Origin: an uncultured bacterium
GTDB taxonomy: Bacteria > Verrucomicrobiota > Lentisphaeria > Victivallales > UBA1829
DNA: 64,000 nucleotides
Assembly: GCA_900549415.1 (NCBI GenBank)
Contig: URNX01000007.1
Location: 1,249 to 65,248 of the forward strand
Reading direction: 5' to 3'
Shown: piece after piece, positions 10,972-47,279 of the stretch
How positions within the stretch are numbered: the stretch's first letter is position 1
Layout: each line of letters starts with the position of its first letter
The notes under the pieces: model-generated
The model's database searches: none
Told to the model about the DNA's origin: nothing
The model's input: the letters and a program-made list of their open reading frames with translations, nothing else
Position numbers and translations under genes: made by a program

Positions 10972-11952
10972 ATGGCGGATGAAGCGTTCCGGAAATTTTA
11001 CGAAGCGGAACTCGCCGGATCTCTTGACGAAATCCGGCGCATCCGCACTCAACACGCCCGCAGTTCCAAGCGGGCGGCGTTTGTCATTCTGATAATTTTT
11101 CTGATTCTTGGAGTTCTGCTTTTTGCGGCTCCTGAAGATTTTTCCCTGCTGGTTCTGCTTGGACTGGGCGGGTGCGTGGTTGCCTGGATCATCTGTCTGT
11201 TCTGCTATTTCGGCGGCGGAAAGGAAAAACGGGCGTTCAAAGAGATTGTTGTTCCGCAGATTATAAAATTTTTTGATCCTTCGCTGGAATTCCATCCGGA
11301 TCGCATGGTTCCTTCGAAACTTTATGACCTTTCGGGACTTTTTGCCCAGGAGTGGGATGATTACGACGGCGAAGATTTTGTTTCCGGCTTTTACAAAGGC
11401 GTTGAGGTGATGTTCTCTGAGCTCAAAACCGAGTATGAGACCGAATCGACGGACGATGAGGGAAACACGACCCGGACAACGCATACGATTTTTGATGGAG
11501 TGTTCTTCGTTGCGGATTTTCATAAAGATTTCAAATACCGGACCTATGTGCTTCCCGATGTGGCGGAAAAATATTTCGGAAAACTGCTTGGAGGATTCTT
11601 TCAGAAATGCAATGTCTTCCAGTCCGGGAAACTGATCAAACTGGAGAATGTGGAATTCGAAAAGGAATTTGCCGTCTATGCGGATGATCCCGTGGAGGCG
11701 CGTTACATTCTTTCTCCGCTCCTGATGGAGCGTCTGTTGGTCTTGCGCAAGCGTTTTGCCTGTCCGCTCCAGATTGCATTCGTCGATTCGTGCATGTTTA
11801 TCGCCATTTCAACCAAAGAGGATTTTTTCGAGCTGAGCTCTCTGAAGAATTTTGATATTACAGTTGCGGAACACTGCAAGAATGAACTGGAAATGTTTCT
11901 GAAAATTGTCGAGGAATTGAACCTTGACCGGAGAATCTGGTCTAAGCAATAG
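10972..11952 (+). CDS. DUF3137-like membrane protein (LemA-associated)
   Basis: 326 aa, two N-terminal TM segments then a globular domain. Family assignment is from memory of DUF3137 architecture and its usual position after lemA. Confidence 0.6.
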   Translation: MADEAFRKFYEAELAGSLDEIRRIRTQHARSSKRAAFVILIIFLILGVLLFAAPEDFSLLVLLGLGGCVVAWIICLFCYFGGGKEKRAFKEIVVPQIIKFFDPSLEFHPDRMVPSKLYDLSGLFAQEWDDYDGEDFVSGFYKGVEVMFSELKTEYETESTDDEGNTTRTTHTIFDGVFFVADFHKDFKYRTYVLPDVAEKYFGKLLGGFFQKCNVFQSGKLIKLENVEFEKEFAVYADDPVEARYILSPLLMERLLVLRKRFACPLQIAFVDSCMFIAISTKEDFFELSSLKNFDITVAEHCKNELEMFLKIVEELNLDRRIWSKQ

Positions 11953-11967
11953 ACGGAGGTCTTTGCG

Positions 11968-12471
11968 ATGAACATAAATTCGGCTGTTTCGAACTTCTTT
12001 TTCCCGAAGTTGACTCGCGCTTTCGCGGTGCGTCTGCTTTGCATAGTTGTGTTCTGTTTCGTGTTTTTCAAATTTATCTGCAAACCTGTCTGGCTGAACG
12101 GCGGGAGCATGGAGCCGAACTATCATTCGGGCTCGTTCAATTTCTGCTGGACGCCGGTCTACTGGTTCCGCGATCCGCGGGCGGGGGATGTCGTTGCGCT
12201 CCGCTATGAGGGCGACCGCGTAATGCTGCTGAAACGCATCATCGCGGGGGAGGGCGACACCGTGGAGTTCCGGCACGGCATTCTTTATGTCAACGGGAAG
12301 GCGCTGGATGAGCCATATGTGAAATTCAATGAAGGAAAATGGAATCTTCCGCCGCGCAAGGTTGCCGCGGGGAATGTCTATGTGGTCGGCGACAACCGCG
12401 GAATGCCGATCGAACAACATAAATTCGGACAGATCCGCAAGTCCAGAATTCAGGGAACGCTTCTTTTATGA
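11968..12471 (+). CDS. lepB: signal peptidase I (S26 family)
   Basis: 167 aa; TM anchor, GGSMEPN (catalytic Ser), LLKRIIAGEGD (catalytic Lys box), VVGDNRG. Confidence 0.85.
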   Translation: MNINSAVSNFFFPKLTRAFAVRLLCIVVFCFVFFKFICKPVWLNGGSMEPNYHSGSFNFCWTPVYWFRDPRAGDVVALRYEGDRVMLLKRIIAGEGDTVEFRHGILYVNGKALDEPYVKFNEGKWNLPPRKVAAGNVYVVGDNRGMPIEQHKFGQIRKSRIQGTLLL

Positions 12472-12974
12472 AAAAGAAATGGTGTATTCTTTCCGTACTC
12501 CTTCTCATTGCCGCTGGAGCTGCCGCCTGTTTTTTTCTCTTTGCTGAAAAAGAAGAGTCGAAGATCAAACGCTCGTTCGGAGAGCTTTCCGCGACAGTGC
12601 GCAAGAGCGGAAATGAAGGTATGCTGGTGTCGCTGGAAAAGGCGAAGACAGCATCAAAGTTTTTTGATGAGTTCTGTGCGCTCAAGCTCGAAAACATTCC
12701 GCAGGGCGTTGGTCGGATGTCGCGTGACAATATCGCCTCCAACACGGCGATGCTCCGTAAGTATTTTGACCGGATGGATATATCTTTTTATGATATGGAA
12801 GTTTTTGTGGAACCGGACGGTGCGGAAGCGCGGATGAGTTTCACCGCCGTGTTTAAAGGAAGCGGCTCCGGACGCAGTGTCGAGGAGCCGCGGGAGATGG
12901 ATGCGGAACTTGTAAAGAAGAGCGGACGGTGGCTGATCCGCTCTCTCGCGTTCCGCGAAGTGATTCAGAAGTAA
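12468..12974 (+). CDS. hypothetical membrane-anchored/secreted protein (possibly NTF2-like fold)
   Basis: 168 aa, N-terminal MKKKWCILSVLLLIAAGAAACFFLF anchor; ATGA overlap with lepB; no family recognised. Confidence 0.55.
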   Translation: MKKKWCILSVLLLIAAGAAACFFLFAEKEESKIKRSFGELSATVRKSGNEGMLVSLEKAKTASKFFDEFCALKLENIPQGVGRMSRDNIASNTAMLRKYFDRMDISFYDMEVFVEPDGAEARMSFTAVFKGSGSGRSVEEPREMDAELVKKSGRWLIRSLAFREVIQK

Positions 12975-12976
12975 GC

Positions 12977-14386
12977 TCAGAGCTCTTCTTCTGCTGCGCC
13001 GGTCGCATTGACTTTGGCGCATTCCGGGTCGGTTTCGTCAAGACGTCCTTCCCAGAGATAGTATTTCGTTTCGTCGTAAATGACCTTGCTGAGGGCGAAG
13101 AGCGAAATGATGTTCGGAATCGCCATCAGACCATTCGCTATATCGGAAATATTCCAGACAAGCTCAAGGTTCAGTACAGCACCGCCGAAAACGAGCAGGA
13201 TGTACGCCGGGCGGTAGACCTGGAAGAGCTTGTTCCCGCCGAGGTAGTGCACCGCCTGACGGCCGTAGCAGAACCAGCCGATAATCGTGGTATATGCGAA
13301 GATCACCAGCGCAATGCCGAGCACATATTCACCGACATAGGGAATCTGGCTGAAGGCAAGACGCGGCAGCTCAATTGCTTTGAATTTCGTGAAATCAGCA
13401 TCCAGGTTGTGGTGAAGAACCGTCGAGACAATCGCCACGCCGGTGAGAGCGCAGACACAGACCGTATCCCAGAAAGTACCGGAGGAGGAGATCAGCGCCT
13501 GACGCACCGGGTTCGCGCTCTTCGCGCTTGCCGCGATCATCGGAGCGGAACCGAGACCGGATTCGTTGGAGAAGAGACCGCGCGCCACACCGTAGCGAAG
13601 GGCCATCATCAGCATGGTTCCGAAGAAGCCGCCGCCGATAGCCTTCAGGCTGAATGCGCTGGTGATAATCAGCTTGAGCGCGGGAAGGAGGGTCTGATAG
13701 TTGATAATAATGATTGTGAAGCAGCCGAGCACATAGAGAATCGCCATGAACGGAACCAGGGTTCCGCAGACTCGGGAGATGAACTTGAGTCCGCCCCAGA
13801 CGATTGCGGCGATCAGAATCGCTTCGAGGATTCCGGTTGCCATCGGGGGAATGTGGAAGACTTCCGCAGAGTAGCCGGAAACGGCGTTGCTCTGCACCAT
13901 GCTTCCGATACCCGTGCAGGCCATCAGAGTGAAGACGGCAAAACAGATTGCAAGCGGTTTGCAGTGCATTGCGCGCTCCATGACATACATCGGACCGCCG
14001 CGGATGAAACCGTCCTCGCCGACAAACCGGTATTTAACCGAGAGGAGAGTTTCTCCGTATTTTGTTGCGATTCCGAAAATGCCGCAGAGCCAGCACCAGA
14101 ACACCGCGCCGGGACCGCCGAGGACGATCGCGGTTGCCACACCGATGATGTTTCCGGTTCCGATGGTTGCCGCCAGCGCAATGGAGAGTGCGCCGTAGTG
14201 GGAGATCTCGCCGACCGCATTCGGATCTTTCTGAAGACTCAGACGGATCGCCAGAGGAATGTACCGCTGGATGAATTTGAGGCGGAAGGTGAGAAAGAGG
14301 TGACCTCCGACGAGCAGTACCAGGAGCGGAATGCCCCAGAGAAACGAGTCGAAGGCGCTGACAAGGTCAGCGAATGTTTTCATCAT
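12977..14386 (-). CDS. alanine/glycine:cation symporter (AGCS family)
   Basis: 469 aa; ...ALAATIGTGNIIGVATAIVLGGPGAVFWCW... is the AGCS hallmark. Confidence 0.9.
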   Translation of the reverse strand: MMKTFADLVSAFDSFLWGIPLLVLLVGGHLFLTFRLKFIQRYIPLAIRLSLQKDPNAVGEISHYGALSIALAATIGTGNIIGVATAIVLGGPGAVFWCWLCGIFGIATKYGETLLSVKYRFVGEDGFIRGGPMYVMERAMHCKPLAICFAVFTLMACTGIGSMVQSNAVSGYSAEVFHIPPMATGILEAILIAAIVWGGLKFISRVCGTLVPFMAILYVLGCFTIIIINYQTLLPALKLIITSAFSLKAIGGGFFGTMLMMALRYGVARGLFSNESGLGSAPMIAASAKSANPVRQALISSSGTFWDTVCVCALTGVAIVSTVLHHNLDADFTKFKAIELPRLAFSQIPYVGEYVLGIALVIFAYTTIIGWFCYGRQAVHYLGGNKLFQVYRPAYILLVFGGAVLNLELVWNISDIANGLMAIPNIISLFALSKVIYDETKYYLWEGRLDETDPECAKVNATGAAEEEL

Positions 14387-24425: not shown

Positions 24426-25214
24426 TCAATGTGTCACACTTTCAAACAGTTCAAAGTAGCGGCGTCCCAGTTCGCGGGCGGAGCGGGCGTTGAAATGAAG
24501 TCTGTCGCCGCGGTGAACCAGACCTGCGGAAGAGGCGACACGGACAAGCTCCAGCTCTTCAGAAAGCTCATGCATGATTCCGTTGATGCCGGGAACGTTT
24601 TTCTGGATATTCTCTTCGTAGAAATCACCAAGTTCGCCGAGGAGGAAGGGGACTCCGTTCAGATTCAGATCACGGCGGAAGTTCGCGATGACCGTGCGCA
24701 AATCCTCTTTGTAGCTCCGTGTGCCGCGGTGCGCATCTGTCTCTCCCTGATGCCAGAGAACGCAGACGATTTCCCCGTATTTCATTGCTTCGCGGGCGGC
24801 GCGAACGGCATCATCATACGGATGATTTCCAGCATCCCACGGGTCGACGCCGCCGGGGAGCCATGCGACGACTGGAGTTCCGCCGATTGCAGTCGGAATG
24901 AGACCGATCGGACGGTTCGGAAAGCGCTCATGGAAGAGTTTTGCAAACGTGCGGCCGGGACCGACGCCGCGCACTGTCATGCCCTCTCCGGGAATGGGAT
25001 TGTCCCACGGATCGGGCGAACTCATACGTTCGTCTGCGGCGGAGAAACAGCCGACCATGCTGCGGTCGCGCGTGACCGGCTCAATCGCCGGATACCACTT
25101 TCCATGGCGGAAAACTTCTACATTTTCAATGGGCTCAAGATCCTCAGGCGAGGCGACATCGCGCCCCGCCATGTTGGATTGTCCGGCAAGAAGAATCAGC
25201 TGTTTTTTCTCCAT
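24426..25214 (-). CDS. SASA-family carbohydrate esterase (sialate O-acetylesterase-like, DUF303)
   Basis: 262 aa; N-terminal ILLAGQSNMAGR block and VLWHQGETD block typical of the SASA/SGNH-like family. Confidence 0.8.
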   Translation of the reverse strand: MEKKQLILLAGQSNMAGRDVASPEDLEPIENVEVFRHGKWYPAIEPVTRDRSMVGCFSAADERMSSPDPWDNPIPGEGMTVRGVGPGRTFAKLFHERFPNRPIGLIPTAIGGTPVVAWLPGGVDPWDAGNHPYDDAVRAAREAMKYGEIVCVLWHQGETDAHRGTRSYKEDLRTVIANFRRDLNLNGVPFLLGELGDFYEENIQKNVPGINGIMHELSEELELVRVASSAGLVHRGDRLHFNARSARELGRRYFELFESVTH

Positions 25215-25218
25215 TTTC

Positions 25219-28200
25219 TTATTCCTGAATCAGTTCGAAGTAGACGCTTGCTTTCTTTAATTTATCCGTATTGACATTGATTTTCAAGCGTCCGTTTTCT
25301 GATTTAAGCGGAATTTCTTCGCGGCGTGTGCCGTCCAGAGCGAGCGCATAGAGTTTGAATCCCGCGGTATCGGAATGTTTCAAACTTGCATTGAATTTGC
25401 CGGTGCGGAGCATCGGAACCGGATCGCCGTTCTGCCAGCCGTGAAGGAAGGCCCCCCGGTATGAGACCGTTCCGTTTTTATTTGCCGTTGCGGTCGTGAA
25501 GATCAGCAGCATTCTGCGGCTTGCGGAAAGCGGGAGCCCATCCACCGAAACAAGCGAGATGCAGCCGTCACTGCTGGTCGATTCGATTGCAAAATCCCCC
25601 AGATCGGCGGAACTGCCGGCTGTGAGACATGCCCCCTGCGTGCGCGGGGTACGGACTTCCAGTTTCTTCTCTGCCGTGAACATAGTTATCTGAGCATTGT
25701 CAGTCTGGTAAATTCCCTGCGCCGGAACGGAGAGGTTGGCCGCGGAAAGAATGCCGCGTTTGCGCAGAAGATCCGCGAACTCAGCCGCGCTGAACATGCG
25801 GTCTTTGCCGCTTCCCGCACCGATTGCGTCATCGAGTTCCGACTTATAGAGTCCGTCCGTGCGGGTTGCCGGAATGGCAAGATCATGCGGAACAGAACTG
25901 CGGACGCCTGCCGGACGCGGCGTGCAGGGAAACTCCATGCTGAATCCGGTCATCAGAGCAAGCTTGGTCTGTTCGGGAGAAACAGGCTGGAAAAACTTTG
26001 TCAGTTCCGGAGAAACCTGAAGTGCGATATTGTGTGTGCTCGGAGCGGCATCGCCGCGCCGGAAGAGCGCGTAAATCAGAGAGAGGGAGCCGCGCGCAAC
26101 CGGATTGCTTCCGATGTTGAACGTACTTAGCCGTTCCGGAGTCAGTGTTACCGGACCCGAATGCGGAAGAACGGCACGGAAGTTCTGGAATGCAGAGTAC
26201 CCGCCCATGACGAGTCCGAATTCATAGGAATAGGGATTCGGGGGACAGTGGTTTGTTTCGGTGACGAAATAGGGGCGGTCGGCAAACTTCGCGGCGACGA
26301 GATTGCGCCAGTAAAGAGCTGCGCTGCTGACGGCGCTCTGCATGGTTGCCGCGCGGGAACCGCGGACGGCATCCCGCTGTGTATTGAGATTGAGTCCGAT
26401 GGCATGGGACCAGTAGCTGTGTCCGAACGCGATCTGCGAATACCGGCTGCGGACCGCATTGTCGCCGAACCAGACTGGAACGTCGAATTGTCCGATCAAT
26501 CCTTTGTATCCGAATTCCCGGATCGTTTTTTCGCAGAACTCCATCATTCTGCTCTGAAGTTCCGTGCAGCACTCGATGAAGTCGCGCGATTTCGGGGAAT
26601 CTTTCGCCGCACCGGAGAGCAGACCGCGCGTGACCGTGATTTTTTCAAAGGAGTCAAAAGAACTCTTCCATGCATTGTTCAACGCTGCAATGTTTTTATA
26701 TTTTGCAGACAGGAACTCACGGAAGCGGCGGTTGAACAGCTGAATTTCGTTTGCCGTAACGCGCGTTCCCTTGAGATTAGTCCAGATCATGCAGCCTTCT
26801 TCCTCGTTGCTGAATTCGACTGTAACAAGCTGGGGATCATCGGCAAGACGCGTTCCGGTATAGGGATTAACGGTGTCGAGAATTGTTTTTGCGTTTTCGC
26901 GGAAACGCGCTTTTGCCTCATCGGTCAGAAGCAGAAGTCCGATCCGGCGCGGGTGGGAACCGGCAAATCCGCTGCCTCTGTGGTCGTAAATGGAAATATT
27001 GAGATAACAGCCCTGTTTCTTGAGTTCGGAGATCATGAACCAGTTGCGGTCGCGTTCCTCTTTTGTGCCGTACCAGCAGCGAGATTCGATATGGAACCGG
27101 ATATGATTCATGCCGAGCGCACGCAGAGAACGTGCGTATTCCTTTGCAAACGCCTCAAACTGTGCGCGGTTCATGGGAGCCCAATCCTTGATCACAAAAC
27201 CGTCGTCGCGGACATTGGTTTCATACGGATACGTTCCGCTGCCAGCGCCGGAAAAGGGCCCGTTTGCTCCGAAGAAGCGCACCGGATTTTTTGCATCCCG
27301 CTCAAAAACGGGTTCGCCTTTGTCATTCAGAATGAGCCGTCCGAATTTCCCTGCGGGGGTGTGGACAGCTCCGGAGAAATCAAGCGCTGTTCCCGGCTGG
27401 ACAACGAGTTTCCCCAGAGCGGCGGTCTTCCAGCCGCTGCCGTTCTTGATGAGAACGGTCGGCAGATACCATTCTGCGAGATTCTGCCACATCTGATGAC
27501 GCGGCAGTTTTGCGGTCGGACCGTACATCAGAAACCAGCCATTGCTTCCCGGGAAGACTTTGATTGCAATGGTATTTTTGCCCTTCTTCAGTTCGAAATC
27601 AACCGGGTGATTGTCCGGAGAGAAACGGGTTGTTTCATTTCCAGCTTTCTCAAGACGGCTGGTTGAATAATATTCTTTTCCGTTGCAATAGAAAGTGAAA
27701 TACCAGTCGGCGGCAAGACCGAGACGCACTGTGCGGTCGCGGTCACTTTCCACTTCCGTCATGAGCATGACACAGCTGCGCGGTTCATGTTTCGGTATGA
27801 GGGGAAGACAGTCGATTTTCCCGTTGACGGCTTTTACTTTGACCGGGAAAATATCCGTCTCTTTCCTTCCGTTTGCCGAATAGGTCCAGCGTTCCGGAAT
27901 GATTGCAGGGGCCTCGCGGTAGACACTGGCGTTGACAAATGCGGTCCATTCGTCATTCAGTTTCGGACACGGGTCAACTTTTTCGAGTTTCACATTGCGG
28001 ATTTCGACTTCCGAATCAATGAAATTTCCAAGATGAAACGAGATGGCTGAAGGAGGGTCCGCAGGGATCTTTTTCCTGCGGTTGAAACGGAATGACCAGT
28101 CGTATTGAAGTTCTCCCGGGTGAATCTGCAGACGTTTTGAACTGAAGAGGGGATAATGCGGCTTTTGCCGGACTCCGGCGCCGACGGTCAGTTCCGCAGA

Positions 28201-28401
28201 ACGACTGGTTTTTACCGTAAAAGTGAGACGGTAGTCCTGTCTGTCTTCCAACGGAACGAAAGTATAGAGCAGAACTGCGCCGTTTTTTGCTTTCTGAAGC
28301 GGGATGTTCAGCTGCAAAGCGTTTTTTGCAAAACACGCCTTGCGCGGAGTTGCGACTTTATAATCCGGAGCGATCCAGCAGCGCCAGGTGTTCCAGTCCA
28401 T
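25219..28401 (-). CDS. large multidomain glycoside-hydrolase-like protein (beta-sandwich modules plus TIM-barrel, clan GH-A-like); N-terminus probably disrupted
   Basis: 1060-aa ORF. Central region has MNHIRFH, VEFSNEEEG (candidate acid/base NE) and FVTETNH (candidate nucleophile), reminiscent of clan GH-A. No signal peptide in frame; a signal-peptide-like start lies out of frame 74 nt upstream (see findings). Confidence 0.6.
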   Translation of the reverse strand: MDWNTWRCWIAPDYKVATPRKACFAKNALQLNIPLQKAKNGAVLLYTFVPLEDRQDYRLTFTVKTSRSAELTVGAGVRQKPHYPLFSSKRLQIHPGELQYDWSFRFNRRKKIPADPPSAISFHLGNFIDSEVEIRNVKLEKVDPCPKLNDEWTAFVNASVYREAPAIIPERWTYSANGRKETDIFPVKVKAVNGKIDCLPLIPKHEPRSCVMLMTEVESDRDRTVRLGLAADWYFTFYCNGKEYYSTSRLEKAGNETTRFSPDNHPVDFELKKGKNTIAIKVFPGSNGWFLMYGPTAKLPRHQMWQNLAEWYLPTVLIKNGSGWKTAALGKLVVQPGTALDFSGAVHTPAGKFGRLILNDKGEPVFERDAKNPVRFFGANGPFSGAGSGTYPYETNVRDDGFVIKDWAPMNRAQFEAFAKEYARSLRALGMNHIRFHIESRCWYGTKEERDRNWFMISELKKQGCYLNISIYDHRGSGFAGSHPRRIGLLLLTDEAKARFRENAKTILDTVNPYTGTRLADDPQLVTVEFSNEEEGCMIWTNLKGTRVTANEIQLFNRRFREFLSAKYKNIAALNNAWKSSFDSFEKITVTRGLLSGAAKDSPKSRDFIECCTELQSRMMEFCEKTIREFGYKGLIGQFDVPVWFGDNAVRSRYSQIAFGHSYWSHAIGLNLNTQRDAVRGSRAATMQSAVSSAALYWRNLVAAKFADRPYFVTETNHCPPNPYSYEFGLVMGGYSAFQNFRAVLPHSGPVTLTPERLSTFNIGSNPVARGSLSLIYALFRRGDAAPSTHNIALQVSPELTKFFQPVSPEQTKLALMTGFSMEFPCTPRPAGVRSSVPHDLAIPATRTDGLYKSELDDAIGAGSGKDRMFSAAEFADLLRKRGILSAANLSVPAQGIYQTDNAQITMFTAEKKLEVRTPRTQGACLTAGSSADLGDFAIESTSSDGCISLVSVDGLPLSASRRMLLIFTTATANKNGTVSYRGAFLHGWQNGDPVPMLRTGKFNASLKHSDTAGFKLYALALDGTRREEIPLKSENGRLKINVNTDKLKKASVYFELIQE

Positions 28402-28487
28402 TTTTGCAGGCAGCAGATTTTCCGCAGAAAGTCCAGCGCGGCTGACGCTAGGAGAGAGAAAAACAGTTTTTTCATGTGCGAAGATCC

Positions 28488-29267
28488 TTATTTGAATTTG
28501 CGGTAAGCTTTGCTTTCGTCAAAGAGTCTGTAGATATTGTAATTGGTATAAAGTGAAGCCGCTTTCTGTGAGCTCGCGCTCATATCCAGATGCATGACAT
28601 TCGCGGCTCCGCCGTGACGGGTTGTGATAAGCCCGTGATAGGAATTTTCCGTGGTATTCGGATCGTTTATTGTGCAGTAGGCGCGCTTGGTTTCCCCTTT
28701 CAGAGAATCTCCGGCGACGATCGTCCGGCTGGAGCCGGGGACGACGTAGCCGATGGTGTTTTTCGCCTTCATGATATCCGTGCGGCGGGTTGCTTTGGTG
28801 ATGGTTCTTGCTCCGCTGAATGCCGCACTGAGTCCGAATGTCTGATGAACAATCATGCCGGAACCGGTTCCGAGAGCGAAATCTTTGGTACAGCGGTAGG
28901 CTTTGGTGAGACGGACATTTTTTTCAACGCTGTAGGCTGCAACAGAGCTGTTGCCGGCGACTTCTTTTTCTTTGAGTCCGGGAGTCATCGTCAGAAGCAG
29001 GTTGCCGACCCAGGGAATCTGATATTCCGGGGGACGCCCGTCGTCGCCGACCTGATAGAGCGGGGCGGGGAAATAATCGTTGAAGCTGTCCGCATACATG
29101 GTCAAAGCGGTTCCGGTCTGCTTCAGATTGCTGAGACAGCCGATCGCGTGCGCCTTGTCTCGGGCTTTGTTCAGGGCGGGAAGGAGCAGACCGGCAAGGA
29201 TGGCAATCACGGCAATTACCACAAGGAGCTCCACAAGGGTAAACATAGATTTCTTCTGTTTCATCAT
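28488..29267 (-). CDS. prepilin-type N-terminal cleavage/methylation domain protein (DUF1559 / H-X9-DG-like pseudopilin)
   Basis: [50 protein letters not shown]..., C-terminal [13 protein letters not shown] (H-X9-D). Confidence 0.88.
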
Positions 29268-29279: not shown

Positions 29280-29648
29280 TCAGTTTGTCTGTCTGCAGAT
29301 TTCATCCACAAGAAAAGTTCCGTTCACGGCGGCGGGGAATCCCGCGTAGACGGCGAGCTGAAGCATGACTTCCATCAGCTCTTCGCGTGAGGCGCCGCAT
29401 TTCATTGCGGCGCGGATGTGACTGCGCAGTTCCGTTTCCAGCCCGCTCTGAGCTGCAAGCGCGGAGACAATCACCAGTTCGCGGGTCTTGAGGTCCAGCC
29501 CCGGGCGGTCGTGAATGTCGCCGAATGCGAATTCCACAATGGCGTCCGCGAGTGCGGGGGAGATCTCTTTGAGGCGCGGGACAATTGTCGAGTGGTCAAA
29601 GAGCTTTGCGCGTCTTGCGACGCCCTTCCGGTAACGTTCTGATTCCAT
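29280..29648 (-). CDS. carboxymuconolactone decarboxylase (CMD/AhpD-like) family protein
   Basis: 122 aa; ...DLKTRELVIVSALAAQSGLETELRSHIRAAMKCGASREELMEVMLQLAVYAGFPAAVNG is classic CMD-family sequence. Confidence 0.85.
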   Translation of the reverse strand: MESERYRKGVARRAKLFDHSTIVPRLKEISPALADAIVEFAFGDIHDRPGLDLKTRELVIVSALAAQSGLETELRSHIRAAMKCGASREELMEVMLQLAVYAGFPAAVNGTFLVDEICRQTN

Positions 29649-29674: not shown

Positions 29675-31918
29675 TCAGGAAACTTTGGCGCGGTGTTCTG
29701 TCTGGGCTATGAACAGATCCTGTTCCGTGCGGCTGAGATTTACAAAATAGACGTTCCACCCGCAGACGCGCACCTGGAGTGTGCGGTATTTTTCCGGATG
29801 CGCCTGGGCGTCGCGAAGAACGTCCGCATCGAAAATATTGCCCTGAATGGAGTGTCCGCCCATTTTGAAATAGGTCCGGACAAGCGTTGCGAGCGTATCA
29901 AGCCCCTCATCTCCCTCCACGGCTGTCGGGTGCATGACAAAATCATACATGCCGGCATGACTGAAATCCGTCATATCCATTTTGCAGATGGAACGCATTT
30001 CTTCAAGGATTCCCCTGCGGTTCATGCCGATGTTCGGACAAAGGTTCTTGGAGAGTGGTTCTCCGGACTTGTGTCCATCGGGCGTCGCTCCGGTGACTTT
30101 GCACCAGACGACATTGAAATCAATGGTGATCTGTCCATTCTTGTAGATTCCGCCGCGGGCATTAGGACGCCCGTTGATGCGGCTTGCGATAAACTTCTGC
30201 AAATCAAGCATGATGCCGTCGGCAAGTTCGCTTCCGTTGCCGTATTTGTCAGAGTCATCGAGAATGAGCTTGCGGAGCGTTTCATACCCCTTCCAGTCGG
30301 CGGCGAGTGCGGCGGCAAACTCCTTCATGGAAACGAGTTTGCGGTCAAACACGAATTTGCGGACGGCGGTCAGGGAATCGACGGCGGTTGCAAGACAGCC
30401 GATGCAGAGAGCCGTGTTGCAGTATTTTGCTCCGGTCGCATATGCGTCTTCTCCTTTTTCGAGAGCTTCGCGCATGGTGGCGGAATACATGTTTGCCGGA
30501 TTGATGACATCAAGTTTGCGTTCAAAATGCTCAATGATATTCATGCAGTAGAAAAGGATATCGTCAAACTGTTTTTCGAAAGCTTTTCTGAAATCGGCAA
30601 AAGTCTTGAATTCCGCCGGGTCACCGGTGTCGCAGCCGAGCTTGTATCCTGTTTCGGGATCGACGCCGCGGTTGAAGGCGAGTTCCAGCAGTTTCCCCAT
30701 GTTCAGGCGGAAGGGAATGGTTTTCGCCTCGCGCTCCTTGACGGTGTAATCCCAGCAGCCGGACATAAGGAATGTGCGGGCCTCTTCTTCCGTCGCGCCG
30801 CACTTGCGGAGAGTCCTGAATGCGACTTCATCGTTGATGATGGAGATGCTGCTGTTTCCTCCGCGGATCGCCTCCAGAACGCGGCGCAGGAATGAATCCG
30901 GAGTTTTCGGAGAGATGCGCACCTGAAGTTTCGGATCGTAGATGTCCGCTTCATCGTAGGCGTTGAAAATCAGCCAGGAAAAATCGGTGATCTGGTCATT
31001 GCCTTCCTCATCCTGCGAATTGAAATACATCGGCTGCTGATAACGGACATTCATTGCGGAGAAGTGATTCATGAAGAATTTGAAAAGCTCTTTGATCTGC
31101 GCGGCGTCAAAAGTTCCGTTCTGAATGTCGCGGCGGTAGAAATCGCGGTAAAGCGTATCAACTCCGCCGAGCGTGCGCGCCCGCTGGGCTTCGATGTTCT
31201 CCTGAATCTTCCAGTAGATAAGCGAAAGGAGCAGTGCCTCATAGGTGTTCTGCGGAGCGCCCGCCGCAATGGAACGGAGCGCTTTTGCCAGCAGCGGCAT
31301 CTTGGGACCGGCGGATTCATGCGCTTCCACGTATGCTGCAAGACGGTTCATGAAGCGGAGAATTGCACGGTAAGTCAGAACGATTCCTTCAAAGAATGCC
31401 TGTTTCACAGGATCGGAGGGATCGGATTTCGCCTGATATGCGAGAACCCGGTCAAGCAGTCCTTTCAGTCCGAGAGTGAGAATATCGTGCCAGCAGGGGG
31501 TGGAGTGGTCGTAGTCGGGATATATGACAATGAGCTTCGCTTCCCGCGCCTGTCTGCAGCGCAGATCATTGTAACAGGCGAGTTCACCTGCATAAAGTTC
31601 ATCCTGCCAGTGAAACTGTGCGACTTTCGCGATTTTGTCGAAATCGCATCCGGCATCAATTCTGTGCGTGACACGCTGGGCGTCCCAGAGAATGCCGAAC
31701 CAGTCTTCGGGATATAGACCCAGCTGAATGTTGTCGAGGATATGCTCCACAATCTTTGCTTTTGCAACTGGATGCGGAACTCCGTCAAGAGTCTTGAGAA
31801 GCTCCTTCGCCTCTTCTTTCAGAACGGGATATTCCCGTCCGCTTTCACGATCGTAGACGGCATTGGCGTACATGCCGTCAAGAATTTTGCGGTCACGGTC
31901 AAAAGTGTTCCAGATCAT
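29675..31918 (-). CDS. glycyl radical enzyme (PFL-like fold), divergent, substrate unknown
   Basis: 747 aa; C-terminal ...HPEKYRTLQVRVCGWNVYFVNLSRTEQDLFIAQTEH (glycyl radical motif RVxG), GATPDGHKSGEPLS block, Cys loop FLMSGCWDYTV. Confidence 0.88.
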   Translation of the reverse strand: MIWNTFDRDRKILDGMYANAVYDRESGREYPVLKEEAKELLKTLDGVPHPVAKAKIVEHILDNIQLGLYPEDWFGILWDAQRVTHRIDAGCDFDKIAKVAQFHWQDELYAGELACYNDLRCRQAREAKLIVIYPDYDHSTPCWHDILTLGLKGLLDRVLAYQAKSDPSDPVKQAFFEGIVLTYRAILRFMNRLAAYVEAHESAGPKMPLLAKALRSIAAGAPQNTYEALLLSLIYWKIQENIEAQRARTLGGVDTLYRDFYRRDIQNGTFDAAQIKELFKFFMNHFSAMNVRYQQPMYFNSQDEEGNDQITDFSWLIFNAYDEADIYDPKLQVRISPKTPDSFLRRVLEAIRGGNSSISIINDEVAFRTLRKCGATEEEARTFLMSGCWDYTVKEREAKTIPFRLNMGKLLELAFNRGVDPETGYKLGCDTGDPAEFKTFADFRKAFEKQFDDILFYCMNIIEHFERKLDVINPANMYSATMREALEKGEDAYATGAKYCNTALCIGCLATAVDSLTAVRKFVFDRKLVSMKEFAAALAADWKGYETLRKLILDDSDKYGNGSELADGIMLDLQKFIASRINGRPNARGGIYKNGQITIDFNVVWCKVTGATPDGHKSGEPLSKNLCPNIGMNRRGILEEMRSICKMDMTDFSHAGMYDFVMHPTAVEGDEGLDTLATLVRTYFKMGGHSIQGNIFDADVLRDAQAHPEKYRTLQVRVCGWNVYFVNLSRTEQDLFIAQTEHRAKVS

Positions 31919-31935: not shown

Positions 31936-32400
31936 TTAGTATTTTTCCCCATGAATGATGACTGTTTCCGCTCCGTTCGCCTTCATAAGCGCGGCGGCTT
32001 TCTGAAGTTCAATCCGGCCGGGGGAGGGAACATGCGGCATGGTATCCGGACGCCCGACAGCCTCGTATTTCGAGCGGGCAAGCGCATGATACGGCAGCAG
32101 GCGCACCGGCGGAACAACGGGCAGCGAGGAGAGAAATTTTGCGGTCTCCGCCAGATTCTCCGCGCTGTCATTGTGTCCGGGAACAAGCGGAATGCGGATT
32201 TCTATTGTTTTACCCGCTTCTGCAATGAAACGGATGTTTTCCAGAATCCGTTCGTTCGGCGCACCCGTGAGTTTGCGGTGGAGGTTGCTTGCGAACGCTT
32301 TCAGGTCGAGCAGAAAAAGGTCGGTGAACGGCAGAACGGTTTCGATGGCGCAGCGCGGGACATTAACGCAGGAATCAACTTTCAACCGGACGTGCCGCCA
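31936..32400 (-). pseudogene. glycyl-radical-enzyme activating enzyme, 5'-truncated remnant (radical-SAM cluster region missing)
   Basis: Only about 155 codons remain, aligning by eye to E. coli PflA residues ~97-246 (HVRLKVDSC.../...TDLFLLDLK.../...IRIPLVPGHND.../...LLPYHALARSKY). The ORF-track 'M' is a TTG at 32383-32385. In-frame TGA at 32473-32475; no CxxxCxxC anywhere upstream on this strand. Confidence 0.75.
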
Positions 32401-32474
32401 CGCACAGACGGTCGAATTCCCCTCTGTATCGTCTTCTGCTGATTCCGGAAGCCGCGCCGGACTCGGAATCGTTC

Positions 32475-33107
32475 ATGGGCAATGACCAGTACTCCTTGCC
32501 GCTCAGAAAAGGCGGTGCATATCTGCGTCCGTCCTTCGGAACGTATGAAACGTTTCTTACCCGGGACATCTTCTTCATTGCGGTTCATTTTGAGCTGAAG
32601 CTGTTTGACATGGATCTTCCGGGCGCCGCCAACCGGGTGATTGCGTGCAATGTTCCGGAACTTTGCGAACTCGTGATGAATTCCGGACGGAACGTTCTTC
32701 CCATGACGGTTCATGCCGTTACGGAAATTTTTCTCGCGCGAGTATGGAGCGAACTTTTTCCGGACACATGGTGGGAGGATCGTCTGCATGAGAAAAAATA
32801 CCAGAGCCTTTTCCATTATATAGAAACGCACCGCTCTCCGGCATCACTTACCGTAAACGAACTAGCGGAGTTTGCCGGACTCCGGCGGGAGGTGTTTTCG
32901 CGGAATTTCACGCATGCGCTCGGCATGACTCCGAAGGAGTATCTGGTGCGCCACCTGATGTCCAAAGCGTCATCGCTTCTTCTGAATCCGAATATGCTCA
33001 TTTCAGATATAGCGAAACGTCTCGGATTCAACGATGAATTTTATTTTTCCCGTTTTTTCAAGCACAACAGCGGACTTTCACCCACAGAGTTTCGGAAAAT
33101 CCAGTGA
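32475..33107 (+). CDS. AraC-family transcriptional regulator (short N-terminal domain, possibly truncated)
   Basis: 210 aa; C-terminal dual HTH (...LTVNELAEFAGLRREVFSRNFTHALGMTPKEYLVRHLM...ISDIAKRLGFNDEFYFSRFFKHNSGLSPTEFR). Only about 100 aa precede the HTH and no cupin signature is recognisable. Confidence 0.8.
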   Translation: MGNDQYSLPLRKGGAYLRPSFGTYETFLTRDIFFIAVHFELKLFDMDLPGAANRVIACNVPELCELVMNSGRNVLPMTVHAVTEIFLARVWSELFPDTWWEDRLHEKKYQSLFHYIETHRSPASLTVNELAEFAGLRREVFSRNFTHALGMTPKEYLVRHLMSKASSLLLNPNMLISDIAKRLGFNDEFYFSRFFKHNSGLSPTEFRKIQ

Positions 33108-42674: not shown

Positions 42675-44081
42675 TCACTTGATCAGCGAGCAGGGGCCGC
42701 CGATGCAGCCGCCGCCGCAACTCATGACTTCGAGGAAGTTGCCGGGCATTTTGCCCATCGCATAGAGTTTCAGCAGTTTGGCCGTCTTCTTGTCGATGCC
42801 GTTGATGAACTTGTTGTCGAGTTTGAAATTCATCTTGGCAAGATCGGGGTTCTTCTTGCTCATTTCCTGGATGACCGCCTCGGTGACGCCGCAGCTCTTT
42901 GCATAGTTGCGGGAGGCCTGGTCGGCTGGCTTTTCGATGTCCCACGGTTCCTGCTTCATGATGTCGATGCCGAGTCCTGCGAGCATGGCGCCGAGCTCTT
43001 CAAAGGTCATGACGTAATCGACTTCTGGAGCGTTTTCCGCTTCCCAGCGTTTCGCGATGCAGGGACCGATGAAGACAGTGAGCGCATTCGGGCGTTTCTC
43101 GCGGACGAGACGCGCGGCGAATTTCATCGGGCTCGGCGTTGTGGAAACCTTGTCGAAGAATTCGGGAACATGACGCTTGACCAGTTCCACATACGCTGTG
43201 CAGCAGGATGTCGTCATGATCTTCTGTCCCGCAATCATCTTTTCGGCGAATTCGGCGGCCTCGTGTTCCGTGGTGAGTTCCGCGCCGAGAGCGACTTCCA
43301 TCACATCGGTGAATCCCGCCTGGTGAATGGCGCTGAAAAGCTGTTCCACAGTTCCGGGGAACTGCATGAGCGCGGAGGGGGCAACCATCGCAACGATTTC
43401 GCGTCCTTCCTTGATGGACTGGAGAATCGGAATCAGCTGCGAGCGTTCCATAACGGCGCTGAACGGGCACTTGCTGAAGCATTTTCCGCAGAAAATGCAG
43501 TGTTTGAAGTCGATTTCAGCAACGCCGAGTTCATTCTTGCGGATCGCCCCGACCGGGCACGCCTCTTCGCAGGGAACAGTGGTCTTAATGATCGCATTGA
43601 ACGGGCAGACCTGCTGGCATTTGCCGCATTTGATGCACTTCGAATAGTCGATGTGCGACTGCTGGTTGATGACGCTGATCGCGCCCTTCGGGCAGTTGAA
43701 GACGCAGGGACGCGCGAAGCATCCGCGGCAGGTCGGCGTTACATAGTAACGGCTTTCGGGACAGGAGGAGCAGGCGGATCCGCAGACGGAAAGCGGCTGT
43801 TTGACCTCTTTTTTATCCTTGTTGTCGATTGTTTCCTGAAGATAGGATTTCAGGGAGCGCAACTCATCGGTCTCCTCTTCGGAAGAGAAGCCGAGAAGAC
43901 CCATCAGGCGGTACTTCAGTACTGCCCGGTCATGATAGATACAGCAGCGGCTGGATTTTTCGGTCTTCGGTCTGAGGGCGATTGGAATACGGTCAATCGT
44001 GTCTGCAAGCTTGCCGTCCTTGAAATCTCTAACGATTCGGATCATCAGCTCGCGACGCATCCGTTCCGCACCATTGCTCAT
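42675..44081 (-). CDS. hydA: [FeFe] hydrogenase, catalytic-type H-cluster motifs, ~50-kDa form with N-terminal multi-Fe-S region (group-B-like)
   Basis: 468 aa; H-cluster motifs TTSCCTAY (L1), GPCIAKRWE (L2), EVMSCGGGCIGGP (L3). Upstream CIKCGKCQQVCP and CIFCGKCFSKCP clusters. TAATG overlap with the preceding gene. Confidence 0.88.
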   Translation of the reverse strand: MSNGAERMRRELMIRIVRDFKDGKLADTIDRIPIALRPKTEKSSRCCIYHDRAVLKYRLMGLLGFSSEEETDELRSLKSYLQETIDNKDKKEVKQPLSVCGSACSSCPESRYYVTPTCRGCFARPCVFNCPKGAISVINQQSHIDYSKCIKCGKCQQVCPFNAIIKTTVPCEEACPVGAIRKNELGVAEIDFKHCIFCGKCFSKCPFSAVMERSQLIPILQSIKEGREIVAMVAPSALMQFPGTVEQLFSAIHQAGFTDVMEVALGAELTTEHEAAEFAEKMIAGQKIMTTSCCTAYVELVKRHVPEFFDKVSTTPSPMKFAARLVREKRPNALTVFIGPCIAKRWEAENAPEVDYVMTFEELGAMLAGLGIDIMKQEPWDIEKPADQASRNYAKSCGVTEAVIQEMSKKNPDLAKMNFKLDNKFINGIDKKTAKLLKLYAMGKMPGNFLEVMSCGGGCIGGPCSLIK

Positions 44082-44364: not shown

Positions 44365-45558
44365 TTAGTAATACTTGATAGAGACCTGCTTCCGGTAGTT
44401 CTGTTTCAGAATATCGTGCAGGCGTTTTATTATGTTTCTTCGGATTTCGAGGTCGACAGGAAGGTTCGGGTCCTGATGCGCCTCGTTGACTTTCGTTCCG
44501 ACGATAAACTCTATGATGTCGCTCTCCATCATGCCGTTGATGATGTCCTTCGCGGCCGGCGGAGAGTCGTCCCAGTTCCCGCTTTCGAGATCCGACGCGA
44601 CACGCGTCAGAGTCAGAATGCCTTCGGTGACGATACCGACTCCGGGAATGATTCCCGGCGGGGGAAGTCCTTTGCTGAAACGCACCATTTTCAGGTCGAT
44701 TTCAACCTTCGTGCGCAGTTCCCTTTCGATAATGTTTGCGGTTGTTCCGCCGCAGATGATCACGCGGTCGGCTCCGGTTTCCGGCTGGGCGAGGGCGGCG
44801 AATTCCTGGTCGCGCTCCTTGCGGAACGGCGGACCGGTGAGGACGCGGCAGACGCGCGGCTTGCGCAGGTAGATCACCAGACAGCTGATATCGTCGATGC
44901 ATTTGCGGTTCGGATTGATCGAAAGCGCCTGATAGGCAACCGCCTGGGCAATGTCCTTTGCAGAGACGTCCGGCTGGCGGGCGATGAGTTCCTGAACGAA
45001 TTTCATGAGTCCGCGCCGGCCCCACCCGAACTTGTAGTTGCGCTGTCCGAGTCCAGCCTGAGTGACGCCGTCGGAACAGGCGATCAGCCGGTCTCCGACT
45101 TCCAGACGCAGTTCGGAAAGCTGCATCTCGCGGTCCGGCCAGCGCTCCGAAATGAGAGTCTTCGCGGAAAACGGCGGAATTTCAACCGTTCCGCGCAGCT
45201 GAATGTACGGCGGATTGCCCATTTCGACGACTTTGGTTTTGCCGCCCATCTGCATATCCAGAATAGTGAAAGTCGCATAGCTGATTTTGCGGATTTCGCA
45301 GACGGGGAGGGTATCCATGATTGTTTCCGCCGACTGGAGAATATCCATGTTCGAGCGGATGAATTTCATCGCCATTGTTGTTGTCAGCGTGGCAAGCAGA
45401 TTCGCCTTGATTCCGCTGCCGAGACCGTCTGAGAGAACCGCGATGTTGCGGTTCTCGTTCTCCAGCCTCTGCCACTGGAAATTGTCGCCGCAGGCAGCCT
45501 GACCGTCTTTGGTAAGCTGGCAGCATTCCATTTCAACAAACGGGGAATCATACTTCAT
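44365..45558 (-). CDS. PP2C/SpoIIE-type serine phosphatase with uncharacterised ~160-aa C-terminal domain
   Basis: 397 aa; metal-binding Asp blocks VLSDGLGSG, ACSDGV, DDISCLV. C-terminal part (from ~RVLTGPPF...) unrecognised. ATGA overlap with hydS. Confidence 0.82.
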   Translation of the reverse strand: MKYDSPFVEMECCQLTKDGQAACGDNFQWQRLENENRNIAVLSDGLGSGIKANLLATLTTTMAMKFIRSNMDILQSAETIMDTLPVCEIRKISYATFTILDMQMGGKTKVVEMGNPPYIQLRGTVEIPPFSAKTLISERWPDREMQLSELRLEVGDRLIACSDGVTQAGLGQRNYKFGWGRRGLMKFVQELIARQPDVSAKDIAQAVAYQALSINPNRKCIDDISCLVIYLRKPRVCRVLTGPPFRKERDQEFAALAQPETGADRVIICGGTTANIIERELRTKVEIDLKMVRFSKGLPPPGIIPGVGIVTEGILTLTRVASDLESGNWDDSPPAAKDIINGMMESDIIEFIVGTKVNEAHQDPNLPVDLEIRRNIIKRLHDILKQNYRKQVSIKYY

Positions 45559-47279
45559 TTGTGTTCGGTCTCCTTGCCGTCCTTGTGGTCGGTGTAGGTG
45601 CCGGCGACTTCTTTCAGCAGGATTTCCGTATCCGCCATATGTTCACCGAGGTAGCGGGCTATTTTCTGAACGGTCATGACGTTTTTGCGGATAACCTCTT
45701 TCGCGCGTTCCGCAATCTGCTCGCGCTTGAGTTCATTCTGGGTAACGTCCTGAATGACCGCGCCGACCGTCTGTCCCTCGTTGATGGTGAAGACGCTGAT
45801 GTTGAGAATTCTTTCCCCGGAGACCTGATTGAATTTTTCGATTTCGCCGCCGTTCGCAAGCACGCTCTCGAAAAGGTCGGTGAAGTCGATCATGGAGTCG
45901 AGATAAGCGCCGTTCAGATTTCCGCAGGAGTCGAATGCCAGCAGAGTATCCTCGCCGCAGAGCTCGGCGAAATGCCGGTTGCATTCGATGACCTGGAGAT
46001 CCTGATCGGCAAGCACGACCGCGACGGGAATGTAGCGGATCAGTGCATTGCTGGTCTTCTGGGAAATCTTGCGGAGATAGGAGAGGCACATGGATGTCTC
46101 CGCCTTGCCGTCGAGCATCGCTTTTGCAAATTCGCGGCAGCTGTTGTAGCCGCATCCGCCGCAGTTGAGTTCATCTTCTGCGGAATATTTGCCGATGCGG
46201 TGAAGCGCCTGGAGAATCGCCGCTTCATCGGGCTGCGGTTCGGAGTGGCGGTCTGGGTAAATCAGCTGCTGAATGTTGACGGGAACTTCGCGACCGACAC
46301 TGCTGTGGTGCGGCGCATGAGCCGCTGTTTCGAGCAGAATGTCAATGCGTGAGGATTCCCGGCGCATGACAGGGCCGTTGACGCATCCGCCGTCGCAGGC
46401 AAGCATTTCAACAAAGATTTTCGATCCGCTTTCTTTAAGGGTCGCAAGATCAACCTTTTCAATCAGGCGGGCGATGTTGGGCAGCCCGGAGACGGCGAGC
46501 AGACGGGCATCCACTTCGGGTGAACGGAGCGTTTCGTTCATTCCGCCTTCAATTGAATAGACGCGTCCTTCTTCCGCCTGAACGGGAACCAGCGGCTCCT
46601 CGTTCATTTTGTCGAGAGAGATTCCTTCGCTCTTCAGCCATGATTCGAGCGCGGCGAACGTAATTGCCAGACTCAGATCGTCCGGGTTGCGGTCCGCCTC
46701 GTTCTTTTTAGCTGCGCAGGGACCGACGAAAATAACCTTGATGTCGTCCCCGTAAACCTGTTTCAGATATTTGCAGTGCGCCATGACCGGCGAAGTGACC
46801 GGAAGAAAGTTGTCGGTCCATGCCGGATAATATTTACGGATAAAATCGACGGAAGCCGGACACGCCGTAGAAAGATAGACGCCCGGTCCGGCCTGTTTGA
46901 GCAGTTCCGCAGTCTGAGCGCTGACAAACTGTGCGCCGATTGCTGTTTCGCTTGCTCCGGCGAAGCCGAGACGCTTGAGAGCCGCGGCGATCCTGCCGAT
47001 GGGAATATTTTTGAAATAGCCAACATAGCTTGGAGCGATGGATGCATAAACCTTTGCGCCGGAATGAAGCAGGTATTGCGCACGGGAGAGATCCGAGCGG
47101 ATTTTCTTGGCTTCCGCGGGACAGACCTTGACGCATTCTCCACATGAAACGCAGAGCTCCGGAATCACCGCCGCGCGAGCGTTGACGATCCGGATGGCCT
47201 TGCAGTGACAGTGCCGGACGCATTTGTAGCAGTCCTGACACTCGTTCGCCGTCGTGTAGATCGGAAAATTCTGATTCAT
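45555..47279 (-). CDS. hydS: sensory [FeFe] hydrogenase HydS (group C type) with C-terminal 4-Cys motif and PAS domain
   Basis: 574 aa; 2x[4Fe-4S] N-terminus. H-domain with L1 STACP (proton-relay Cys replaced by Ala), L2 GPCAAKKNE, L3 EMLACDGGCVNGP. CGGCGYNSC-x16-C (Cx2Cx4Cx16C), then PAS-like ...IPVAVVLADQDLQVIECNRHFAELCG... Confidence 0.88.
   Translation of the reverse strand: MNQNFPIYTTANECQDCYKCVRHCHCKAIRIVNARAAVIPELCVSCGECVKVCPAEAKKIRSDLSRAQYLLHSGAKVYASIAPSYVGYFKNIPIGRIAAALKRLGFAGASETAIGAQFVSAQTAELLKQAGPGVYLSTACPASVDFIRKYYPAWTDNFLPVTSPVMAHCKYLKQVYGDDIKVIFVGPCAAKKNEADRNPDDLSLAITFAALESWLKSEGISLDKMNEEPLVPVQAEEGRVYSIEGGMNETLRSPEVDARLLAVSGLPNIARLIEKVDLATLKESGSKIFVEMLACDGGCVNGPVMRRESSRIDILLETAAHAPHHSSVGREVPVNIQQLIYPDRHSEPQPDEAAILQALHRIGKYSAEDELNCGGCGYNSCREFAKAMLDGKAETSMCLSYLRKISQKTSNALIRYIPVAVVLADQDLQVIECNRHFAELCGEDTLLAFDSCGNLNGAYLDSMIDFTDLFESVLANGGEIEKFNQVSGERILNISVFTINEGQTVGAVIQDVTQNELKREQIAERAKEVIRKNVMTVQKIARYLGEHMADTEILLKEVAGTYTDHKDGKETEHK

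Follow-up and report, generated by a model that had tools for sequence, protein, structure and literature searches.

The 64-kb window analyzed here (64,000 nucleotides of contig URNX01000007.1 from an uncultured bacterium of the Victivallales, Lentisphaeria) encodes on its minus strand a PFL-like glycyl radical enzyme (GRE). Downstream of the GRE gene lie genes for a CMD-family protein, a prepilin-type protein, a glycoside hydrolase (GH)-like protein, and a SASA-family esterase; upstream lie the remnants of a GRE activase gene and of a divergent AraC-family regulator gene (Table 1). The original prediction, made from the sequence letters, described the product as a divergent GRE with atypical active-site loops, and our data confirm that it is a GRE with the quoted motifs. 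All three quoted strings were found in the protein, namely SGCWDY (containing Cys388), GATPDGHKSGEPLS, and HPEKYRTLQVRVCGWNVYFVNLSRTEQD (containing Gly720), and the sequence around Gly720 is also written as ...LQVRVCGWNVYFVNLSRTEQD. The PFL-like domain (PF02901) and the Gly_radical domain (PF01228) were detected with Pfam E-values of 2.4e-93 and 1.6e-22, respectively, which places the GRE identity far beyond chance.

HMMER alignments to solved structures were ungapped around both catalytic loops. In these alignments, Cys388 corresponds to Cys434 of HypD and Cys433 of glycerol dehydratase, Asp390 falls on the CXE motif's glutamate, and Gly720 falls on the radical glycine of both enzymes. The odd loops are therefore not an alignment artefact, and we could rule out that they turn canonical once gaps are placed correctly. 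Cys388 is invariant in 119 of 119 aligned sequences, as is His138, the counterpart of glycerol dehydratase His164; the role of the latter and those of the other eliminase catalytic residues are taken from PMC13450708. The Cys loop carries a single cysteine, not the Cys-Cys pair of PFL. An AlphaFold model built on a 54-sequence alignment was confident throughout (pLDDT 94.7, pTM 0.93), and its top structural matches were propanediol dehydratase, glycerol dehydratase, and HypD (TM 0.88–0.90, 23–25% identity). Together with the Pfam scores, the confident model and its structural matches indicate that the window protein is, as modeled, a complete GRE with an eliminase-like architecture.

Table 1. 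Features of the window locus and proteins in which a GRE domain of the same clade is fused to a partner domain
Feature	Position or protein	Strand	Remarks
GRE, PFL-like	29675..31918	minus	747 aa, ATG to stop, open reading frame intact
GRE codon Cys388	30757-30755	minus	
GRE codon Asp390	30751-30749	minus	
GRE codon Gly720	29761-29759	minus	
CMD-family (carboxymuconolactone decarboxylase / AhpD-like) protein	29280..29648	minus	122 aa, without CxxC motif
Prepilin-type N-terminal methylation-motif protein, DUF1559 kind	28488..29267	minus	
Secreted GH-like protein, weak GH42-type TIM-barrel match	25219..28475	minus	1085 aa in relatives
SASA-family carbohydrate esterase	24426..25214	minus	262 aa, without signal peptide
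GRE activase remnant	31936..32391	minus	C-terminal ~150 aa (149-aa fragment), model positions 157-292 of 293
Divergent AraC-family regulator remnant	32376..33107	plus	Homology from residue 22 of the 265-aa ortholog
Deletion junction	32376..32391		~0.7 kb relative to ortholog locus L082; nucleotide and protein alignments
SASA esterase-GRE fusion	P0256 (locus L095, 624-3701)		Confirmed on contig, then GH2 and GH127 genes
AXE1 acetyl-xylan esterase-GRE fusions	P0233, P0253 (L097)		
alpha-L-rhamnosidase-like domain-GRE fusion	P0257		
GH2 beta-mannosidase-like module-GRE fusion	P0244		
3-keto-disaccharide-hydrolase domain-GRE fusion	P0247		

Subfamily assignment was judged by the curated cut-offs of the NCBIfam equivalog models and by residue mapping. 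The window GRE scored far below the cut-off of every model: 324.8 bits versus 1100 for HypD (NF043068), 290 versus 678 for the PFL2/glycerol dehydratase subfamily (TIGR01774), 244 versus 1050 for CutC (TIGR04394), 251 and 233 versus 1000 for the sulfopropanediol dehydratases, 218 versus 1109 for the PflD type (NF007437), and 101 versus 994 for PFL (TIGR01255). The best solved structure is about 25% identical. These data are in agreement with the earlier claim that the protein fits no functionally assigned GRE subfamily. A June 2026 review of the superfamily lists as characterized classes the class III ribonucleotide reductases (RNR), formate lyases, decarboxylases, X-succinate synthases, C-O/C-N/C-S eliminases, three isomerases, and aminoacyl radical enzymes, and describes whole GRE clades that are still without validation (PMC13450708). 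Nothing among its classes matched the window GRE. In the full-text literature, we found no paper on the clade to which this GRE belongs, and the general 2026 review alone was useful.

A word-indexed search returned 88 full-length relatives of 705–790 aa and 31–100% identity, which rank ahead of the first HypD-like proteins; the latter reached only about 75–80% query coverage. Every clade member from this search carries the Gly loop R-V/I-C/S-G-W-N, after which we refer to the group as the RVCGWN clade. Its Cys loop splits it into sub-clade A (GCWD[YF], including the window GRE), sub-clade B (GCNNF), and sub-clade C (GCYE). Scanning a single genome for each GTDB species by pattern and tblastn, we located at least 574 clade loci, distributed over Lentisphaeria (Victivallales, Oligosphaera), Clostridia (Oscillospiraceae and others), Planctomycetota, Verrucomicrobiota, and Armatimonadota. 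Genomes with several paralogs are frequent, and the cultured strain Oligosphaera ethanolica DSM 24202, the source of homolog L005, has at least two. When 1.84 billion representatives clustered at 50% identity were searched exhaustively with HMMER, 2309 GRE-like proteins passed E ≤ 1e-30. Some 130 of these (400–720 bits, 700–750 aa) fall within the clade, which accounts for about 5% of GRE sequence diversity at 50% identity; sub-clade A collapses to two representatives. The closest relative beyond the window's species is 88% identical and occurs in L006 (‘Lentisphaeria bacterium HGM23471’) and L082 (a Logan contig). From this relationship, the window organism is placed among the Lentisphaeria of the gut type. 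The window GRE is a member of a large, coherent, and biochemically uncharacterized clade of PFL-like GREs.

The published GRE fingerprint reads RVxG[FWY]x6-8[FL]x4Qx2[IV]x2R, and the class III RNR loop reads RVCGYLG (PMC13450708). The glycyl motif RVCGW had been called atypical, which was overstated, because it lies within the accepted fingerprint start RVxG[FWY] and its cysteine is the class III RNR state. A clade-wide deviation does exist, in the fingerprint tail. The window GRE matches RVCGW-x6-L-x4-Q and ends in Q-D-L-F-I-A-Q, with Phe for [IV] and Gln for Arg; across the clade, the tail is Q-D-x-F-I-x-Q/R, with [IV] absent at +3 and Arg absent at +6. The full fingerprint is matched by none of 86 clade members versus 29 of 34 other GREs.

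The unusual Cys loop SGCWDY proved to be a real deviation. All characterized eliminases and isomerases keep the CXE motif, whose glutamate hydrogen-bonds a substrate hydroxyl (PMC13450708), whereas C-W-D is conserved in sub-clade A: 36 of 37 sequences have CXD, X being Trp, and both Trp389 and Asp390 are conserved in 36–37 of 37. Because a carboxylate is kept at this position, the function of CXE may be retained. Signature residues of the whole clade are Asp135, Pro141, Arg248, Pro296, Lys330, Arg588, Lys624-Asn625, Asp659, Cys719, Trp721, and Asn722, with Arg248, Lys330, Arg588, and Lys624 invariant or nearly so. Sub-clade A alone adds Arg246, Gln294, Lys399, Arg404, Lys593, and His654. By alignment, Lys399 and Arg404 lie on the strand after the Cys loop, the one bearing Asp447 of glycerol dehydratase and Tyr450 of HypD. 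Lys593, Ile597, and Ile599 lie on the strand bearing glycerol dehydratase Tyr640, HypD Thr645, and IslA Arg678, the last placed by numbering offset.

Among named systems, the 1,2-eliminases glycerol dehydratase (1R8W), propanediol dehydratase (5I2G), and HypD (6VXC) are the best sequence matches. They share the ten-stranded barrel fold of the window GRE, the aligned catalytic Cys, Gly, and His164-equivalent, and an acidic residue two positions past the Cys; the activase of the intact ortholog L082, with its extra ferredoxin-like clusters, adds to the likeness. The window GRE differs from them in its low identity, its length (747 aa versus about 790–850), its C-W-D in place of their C-V/I-E, and its RVCGWN Gly loop with the altered fingerprint tail. 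Arg246 of the window GRE replaces His281 of glycerol dehydratase and Asp278 of HypD, the latter reportedly the residue for the substrate amine according to the HypD structure paper. Gene contexts differ as well: carbohydrate genes accompany the clade, whereas proline, glycerol, or microcompartment genes accompany the 1,2-eliminases.

By function, the closest analogy is probably with YbiW/PflD (8ID7, 8ID0), the only characterized GREs that act on sugar derivatives, which open the rings of 1,5-anhydroglucitol-6-phosphate and anhydromannitol-6-phosphate. Their substrates are anionic, and the C-O bond beside a hydroxyl-bearing carbon is cut via the Cys and CXE-Glu pair (PMC13450708). Their sequence and fold matches to the window GRE are no closer than those of the other eliminases, however, and they retain CXE and RVAGY-type loops; their operons carry PTS or aldolase genes, whereas those of the clade carry AraC, esterase, and glycosidase genes. 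Class III RNR (NrdD) has a cysteine before the radical glycine in its RVCGYLG loop, as in RVCGW (PMC13450708), but NrdD is a different branch of the superfamily from the PFL-like window GRE, and the resemblance is limited to that one residue.

Genomic context was counted over 81 loci, comprising 79 loci of the GTDB scan (L002–L081, one of these excepted), the window, and L001, a strain assembly with 99.4% nucleotide identity to the window. The greedy calling of open reading frames (ORFs) picks antisense ORFs in high-GC loci, and in the window and L001 it passed over the SASA and CMD genes, in L001 also the AraC remnant; the activase, SASA, and AraC counts are lower bounds. An AraC-type regulator is present in at least 56 of the 81 loci, and activase-type ORF clusters in at least 39 plus 17, the second set being antisense ORF calls over activase genes. 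The rest of the neighborhoods is variable but consistently carbohydrate-related. It includes glycosidases of families GH10, GH51, GH2, GH43, GH94, GH130, and GH39, SASA and GDSL esterases, SGL/SMP-30 lactonases, EamA transporters, Gfo/Idh/MocA, SDR/ADH, and FAD oxidoreductases, and tandem GREs. The carbohydrate setting first suggested by the window's own operon is thus backed far more widely, by neighbors and by fusions across clade loci. At one further locus (L083, GCA_045605765.1 contig, 1–14047), three clade GREs lie within about 12 kb together with two activases, a tandem paralog expansion that is accompanied by a GH51 arabinofuranosidase, an SGL lactonase, an EamA transporter, a Zn-ADH, an SDR, and an AraC regulator.

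Sub-clade A stands apart from the rest of the clade in two of its neighbors. SASA adjoins the GRE in at least 5 of its 11 GTDB loci versus at least 2 of 63 others (Fisher p = 5e-4), and it does so as well in the window, L001, and L087, the last with the order GRE-GDSL-SASA-EamA. An adjacent activase, by contrast, was found in at least 2 of 11 sub-clade A loci versus 43 of 63 others. Beyond the window and L001, just four of the clustered loci have CMD next to the GRE, so the suggested role of CMD as a follow-up decarboxylase is not a family feature. The GRE-CMD-pilin-GH-like block occurs only in the 88% ortholog (L082, L006), where no SASA gene follows it. The four-gene neighborhood of GRE, CMD, GH, and SASA genes is thus specific to its lineage; SASA is a general associate of sub-clade A, and CMD is an occasional partner.

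In the window itself, the CMD-family, pseudopilin, GH-like (about 1060 aa), and SASA genes were all found as predicted. Gaps of 5–27 nt had been given between them, which is roughly right: from the GRE gene onward, the gaps measure 26, 12, 86, and 4 nt, and the 86-nt gap becomes 12 nt when the GH-like gene is counted from its original, frameshifted start. The CMD neighbor scored 72.9 against a cut-off of 155.7 as PcaC (TIGR02425), and 75 against a cut-off of 23 for the general Pfam CMD domain. Prepilin proteins of the DUF1559 kind are typical of PVC bacteria. The GH-like protein belongs to a small family (21 matches), and the only hits among PDB sequences were to GH42-like beta-1,2-glucosyltransferases at E ~1e-3.

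The operon is flanked by DnaK/GroES/GroEL genes on one side and by enolase/TsaD/topoisomerase genes on the other. Elsewhere in the window, a 612-aa ORF (50794–52632, minus) is an apparent MurB-Ddl fusion with MurB (FAD_binding_4 and MurB_C) and D-Ala-D-Ala ligase domains. Two [FeFe]-hydrogenase-like genes (42675–44081 and 45555–47279, both minus), the second of which has a PAS domain and may be of the sensory type, lie near AdhE (47717–50380) and other housekeeping genes of a strict anaerobe.

Fusions were found among the 50%-identity representatives, and in them the clade GRE domain sits behind the partner domain (Table 1); P0263 also belongs to this set. The fused GRE domains keep RV[CT]GWN and GCYE in all of the tabulated proteins but P0244, whose Gly loop was not matched by the pattern. 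This domain architecture independently supports the view that the clade is functionally tied to de-esterification and exo-glycosidase steps. The N-termini of the fusion proteins look like signal peptides of the Sec or lipoprotein type, a feature difficult to square with installation of the radical in the cytoplasm. Two unfused members, P0249 and P0255 (locus L096, 8001–10313), have the Tat-like N-terminal motifs TRRHFLE and TRRRFLE, with TIGR01409 scores of 16.7 bits (exactly at the cut-off) and 13.9 bits, respectively. The gene for P0255 is preceded by GH127-like, Laminin_G_3, and GH16 genes and is followed by one in which a bona fide GRE activase is joined to a metallophosphoesterase domain. 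Judging from these motifs, P0249 and P0255 may be exported GREs.

Our comparison with L082 revealed that the window operon has been damaged at its upstream end. The intact order in L082 is an AraC gene (265 aa) divergent from an activase gene (306 aa), followed by the GRE, CMD, pilin-like, and 1085-aa GH-like genes; the L082 activase has the CX3CX2C motif and ferredoxin-like clusters, and the intact 306-aa form is present in both L082 and L006. In the window, the activase fragment lies 17 nt upstream of the GRE gene and is 75% identical to residues 156–305 of the L082 protein, and the CX3CX2C radical-SAM half and the ferredoxin-like half are gone. The AraC remnant has its first start codon at 32475, opening a 210-aa ORF. 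The deletion took the N-terminus of AraC, the 175-nt divergent intergenic (promoter) region, and activase residues 1–155. That the operon is degenerate had been missed in the original prediction. No other GRE activase was found within the 64-kb window. On the opposite strand of L082 (1–7886), beyond the divergent AraC gene, lies a sugar-catabolic set comprising a PfkB kinase, a fucose-isomerase-like protein, KduI, an FGGY kinase, an FAD-linked oxidase, and a class II aldolase. The window lacks this set and has lactate permease and enolase genes past its AraC remnant.

The independent assemblies L001, L089, and L090 (the latter two at 98.1% nucleotide identity) show the same junction. An assembly error behind the truncated activase is ruled out by this agreement between assemblies that are 0.6% and 1.9% divergent; the 0.7-kb deletion is real and is probably fixed in the species. 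Further lesions differ between strains. In L089 and L090, a 4-nt deletion near window position 31860 and a 1-nt deletion near 30758, beside the Cys388 codon, split the GRE into pieces of 31, 348, and 341 aa. L093 has an 88-nt deletion inside the CMD gene (window-equivalent ~29379–29466). In the window only, a 1-nt deletion near 28435 (within 28401–28475, minus) frameshifts the signal peptide of the GH-like protein, leaving a 1060-aa ORF (25219–28401) that restarts at an internal Met and has no signal peptide. The missing base is present in six other strains, and its loss may be a real pseudogenizing mutation or a sequencing error in a G run. Comparison of the window with L001, which post-dates the deletion, gave 23 non-synonymous and 30 synonymous differences in the operon genes versus 2 and 30 in the flanking housekeeping genes (p = 2e-4). 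A consensus scan, which is a weak test, found no sigma-70-like promoter upstream of the GRE operon on the minus strand; promoter-like sites numbered 5 versus 4.6 expected and terminator-like sites 24 versus 13.4 expected, so the scan was uninformative. Since the GRE is frameshifted in sister strains, selection on the window copy appears to have lapsed, and its ORF is probably no longer maintained.

Taking these results together, we consider it reasonably probable that the locus encodes a structurally complete RVCGWN-clade GRE whose ancestral task was a radical 1,2-elimination or isomerization on a sugar-derived, probably anionic substrate, and whose operon is now a decaying remnant. For the reaction itself, we infer from the aligned residues, at somewhat short of an even chance, a thiyl-radical hydrogen abstraction followed by base-assisted 1,2-elimination or C-O ring opening on a small substrate. 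In the intact ancestral arrangement, which survives in a sister species, an AraC regulator is divergent from an operon of activase, GRE, CMD, pilin-like, and secreted GH-like genes. The radical-SAM activase would put the radical on Gly720, from which it would move to Cys388, and the Cys388 thiyl radical would take a hydrogen from a hydroxyl-bearing carbon of the substrate. Asp390, in place of the CXE glutamate, would deprotonate that hydroxyl, and the resulting ketyl radical would expel the neighboring C-O substituent with the aid of His138. The outcome would be a 1,2-elimination, as in glycerol, propanediol, or hydroxyproline dehydratase, or a ring-opening isomerization, as in YbiW/PflD. The invariant basic residues in predicted pocket-forming segments suggest an anionic substrate, such as a uronic or aldonic acid or a phosphorylated or sulfated sugar, and the esterases and glycosidases that lie next to clade GREs or are fused to them suggest that it is a sugar unit after its release and de-esterification. 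In the decay that followed, one deletion removed the promoter region, the regulator N-terminus, and the catalytic half of the activase, after which strains gained separate inactivating mutations in the operon.

Several points weigh against this reading. On the chemical side, the reaction type would follow from homology and conserved residues in a clade that has no characterized member, and the putative pocket-lining residues were placed by alignment to solved GREs. The motif is CXD rather than CXE, and sub-clade B, with C-N-N, lacks the acidic residue, so that parts of the clade may differ in their chemistry. On the side of the supposed loss of function, the GRE ORF is intact in both the window and L001, the two copies differing by 5 synonymous and 2 non-synonymous changes, and a GRE dN/dS of 0.06 versus L082 indicates strong long-term purifying selection. 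An adjacent activase accompanies just 2 of the 11 sub-clade A loci, and members of this sub-clade may therefore normally depend on an activase gene located elsewhere. Raised within-species non-synonymous counts are also expected for accessory genes.

The main rival reading builds on these last points: the GRE would still be functional, with a different promoter driving it (read-through that starts from inside the remnant region is one example) and with the activase of a paralogous RVCGWN locus elsewhere in the genome acting on it in trans, so that the deletion merely rewired its regulation. Besides the intact ORF and the low dN/dS, it is favored by the lack of an adjacent activase at most sub-clade A loci (L005, L003, L084, and L087 among them) and by the several paralogs found in related Lentisphaeria genomes. 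All paralogs have the RVCGWN Gly loop in common, and Gly-loop sequence is one determinant of activase specificity (PMC13450708). We nevertheless regard a still active enzyme as unlikely. The GRE is twice frameshifted in L089 and L090, which carry the same deletion; L093 has lost part of the CMD gene, and the window carries a frameshift in the GH-like gene. The promoter scan, weak as it is, and the 64-kb search for a second activase, both negative, point the same way.

A chemistry outside the eliminase/isomerase class is less likely still. The GRE could cleave glycosidic or ester C-O bonds of an oligosaccharide by a radical route, with the esterases and glycosidases acting on the same polymer rather than upstream, or it could take part in a CMD-coupled decarboxylation. 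The variable Cys loop (CWD, CYE, or CNN), the fingerprint tail that is altered in every clade member examined, the fusions to glycosidases and esterases with signal-peptide-like N-termini, the two members with Tat-like N-termini, and the CMD protein adjacent in a few loci would all fit such a chemistry. The nearest folds, however, are all 1,2-eliminases, sub-clades A and C retain both the His and the acidic member of the eliminase dyad, and CMD is not a core neighbor. The pockets of solved GREs are moreover buried, which is unfavorable to polymeric substrates (PMC13450708). Finally, it is very improbable that the protein is a diverged ortholog of a characterized GRE (HypD, glycerol/propanediol dehydratase, CutC, IslA, or PflD/YbiW) whose odd loops reflect drift in a dying gene: HypD is indeed the best sequence match and the locus is decaying, but Trp389 and Asp390 (36–37 of 37 in sub-clade A) and the Gly loop (85 clade members) are kept under purifying selection, all equivalog scores fall far below their cut-offs, and HypD Asp278 aligns with an Arg.

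GREs give anaerobes access to chemistry that otherwise depends on oxygen or B12. To our knowledge, each newly assigned GRE clade has opened a new pathway in gut or sediment, as for choline, hydroxyproline, isethionate, and the anhydro-sugars. That unassigned GRE clades exist is unsurprising; what is new here is a GRE clade that has loop signatures, a carbohydrate context, and domain fusions of its own, and its link to CAZymes, its CXD loop, and its apparently exported or fused forms are the more unexpected features. Some caution applies to the window GRE itself, which is an orphan in a decaying operon and hence a poor experimental entry point. It is a tentative and rather doubtful proposal that the RVCGWN clade is a new functional class of GRE for carbohydrate breakdown in anaerobic glycan specialists, working alongside or fused to esterases and glycosidases to bring about radical C-O cleavage on hydrolase-resistant sugar units, with some members perhaps exported. 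If that were true, the exported members would be the first extracytoplasmic GREs. The clade has expanded among polysaccharide degraders, with physical links or fusions to CAZymes, and its assignment could uncover a radical step in anaerobic glycan catabolism.

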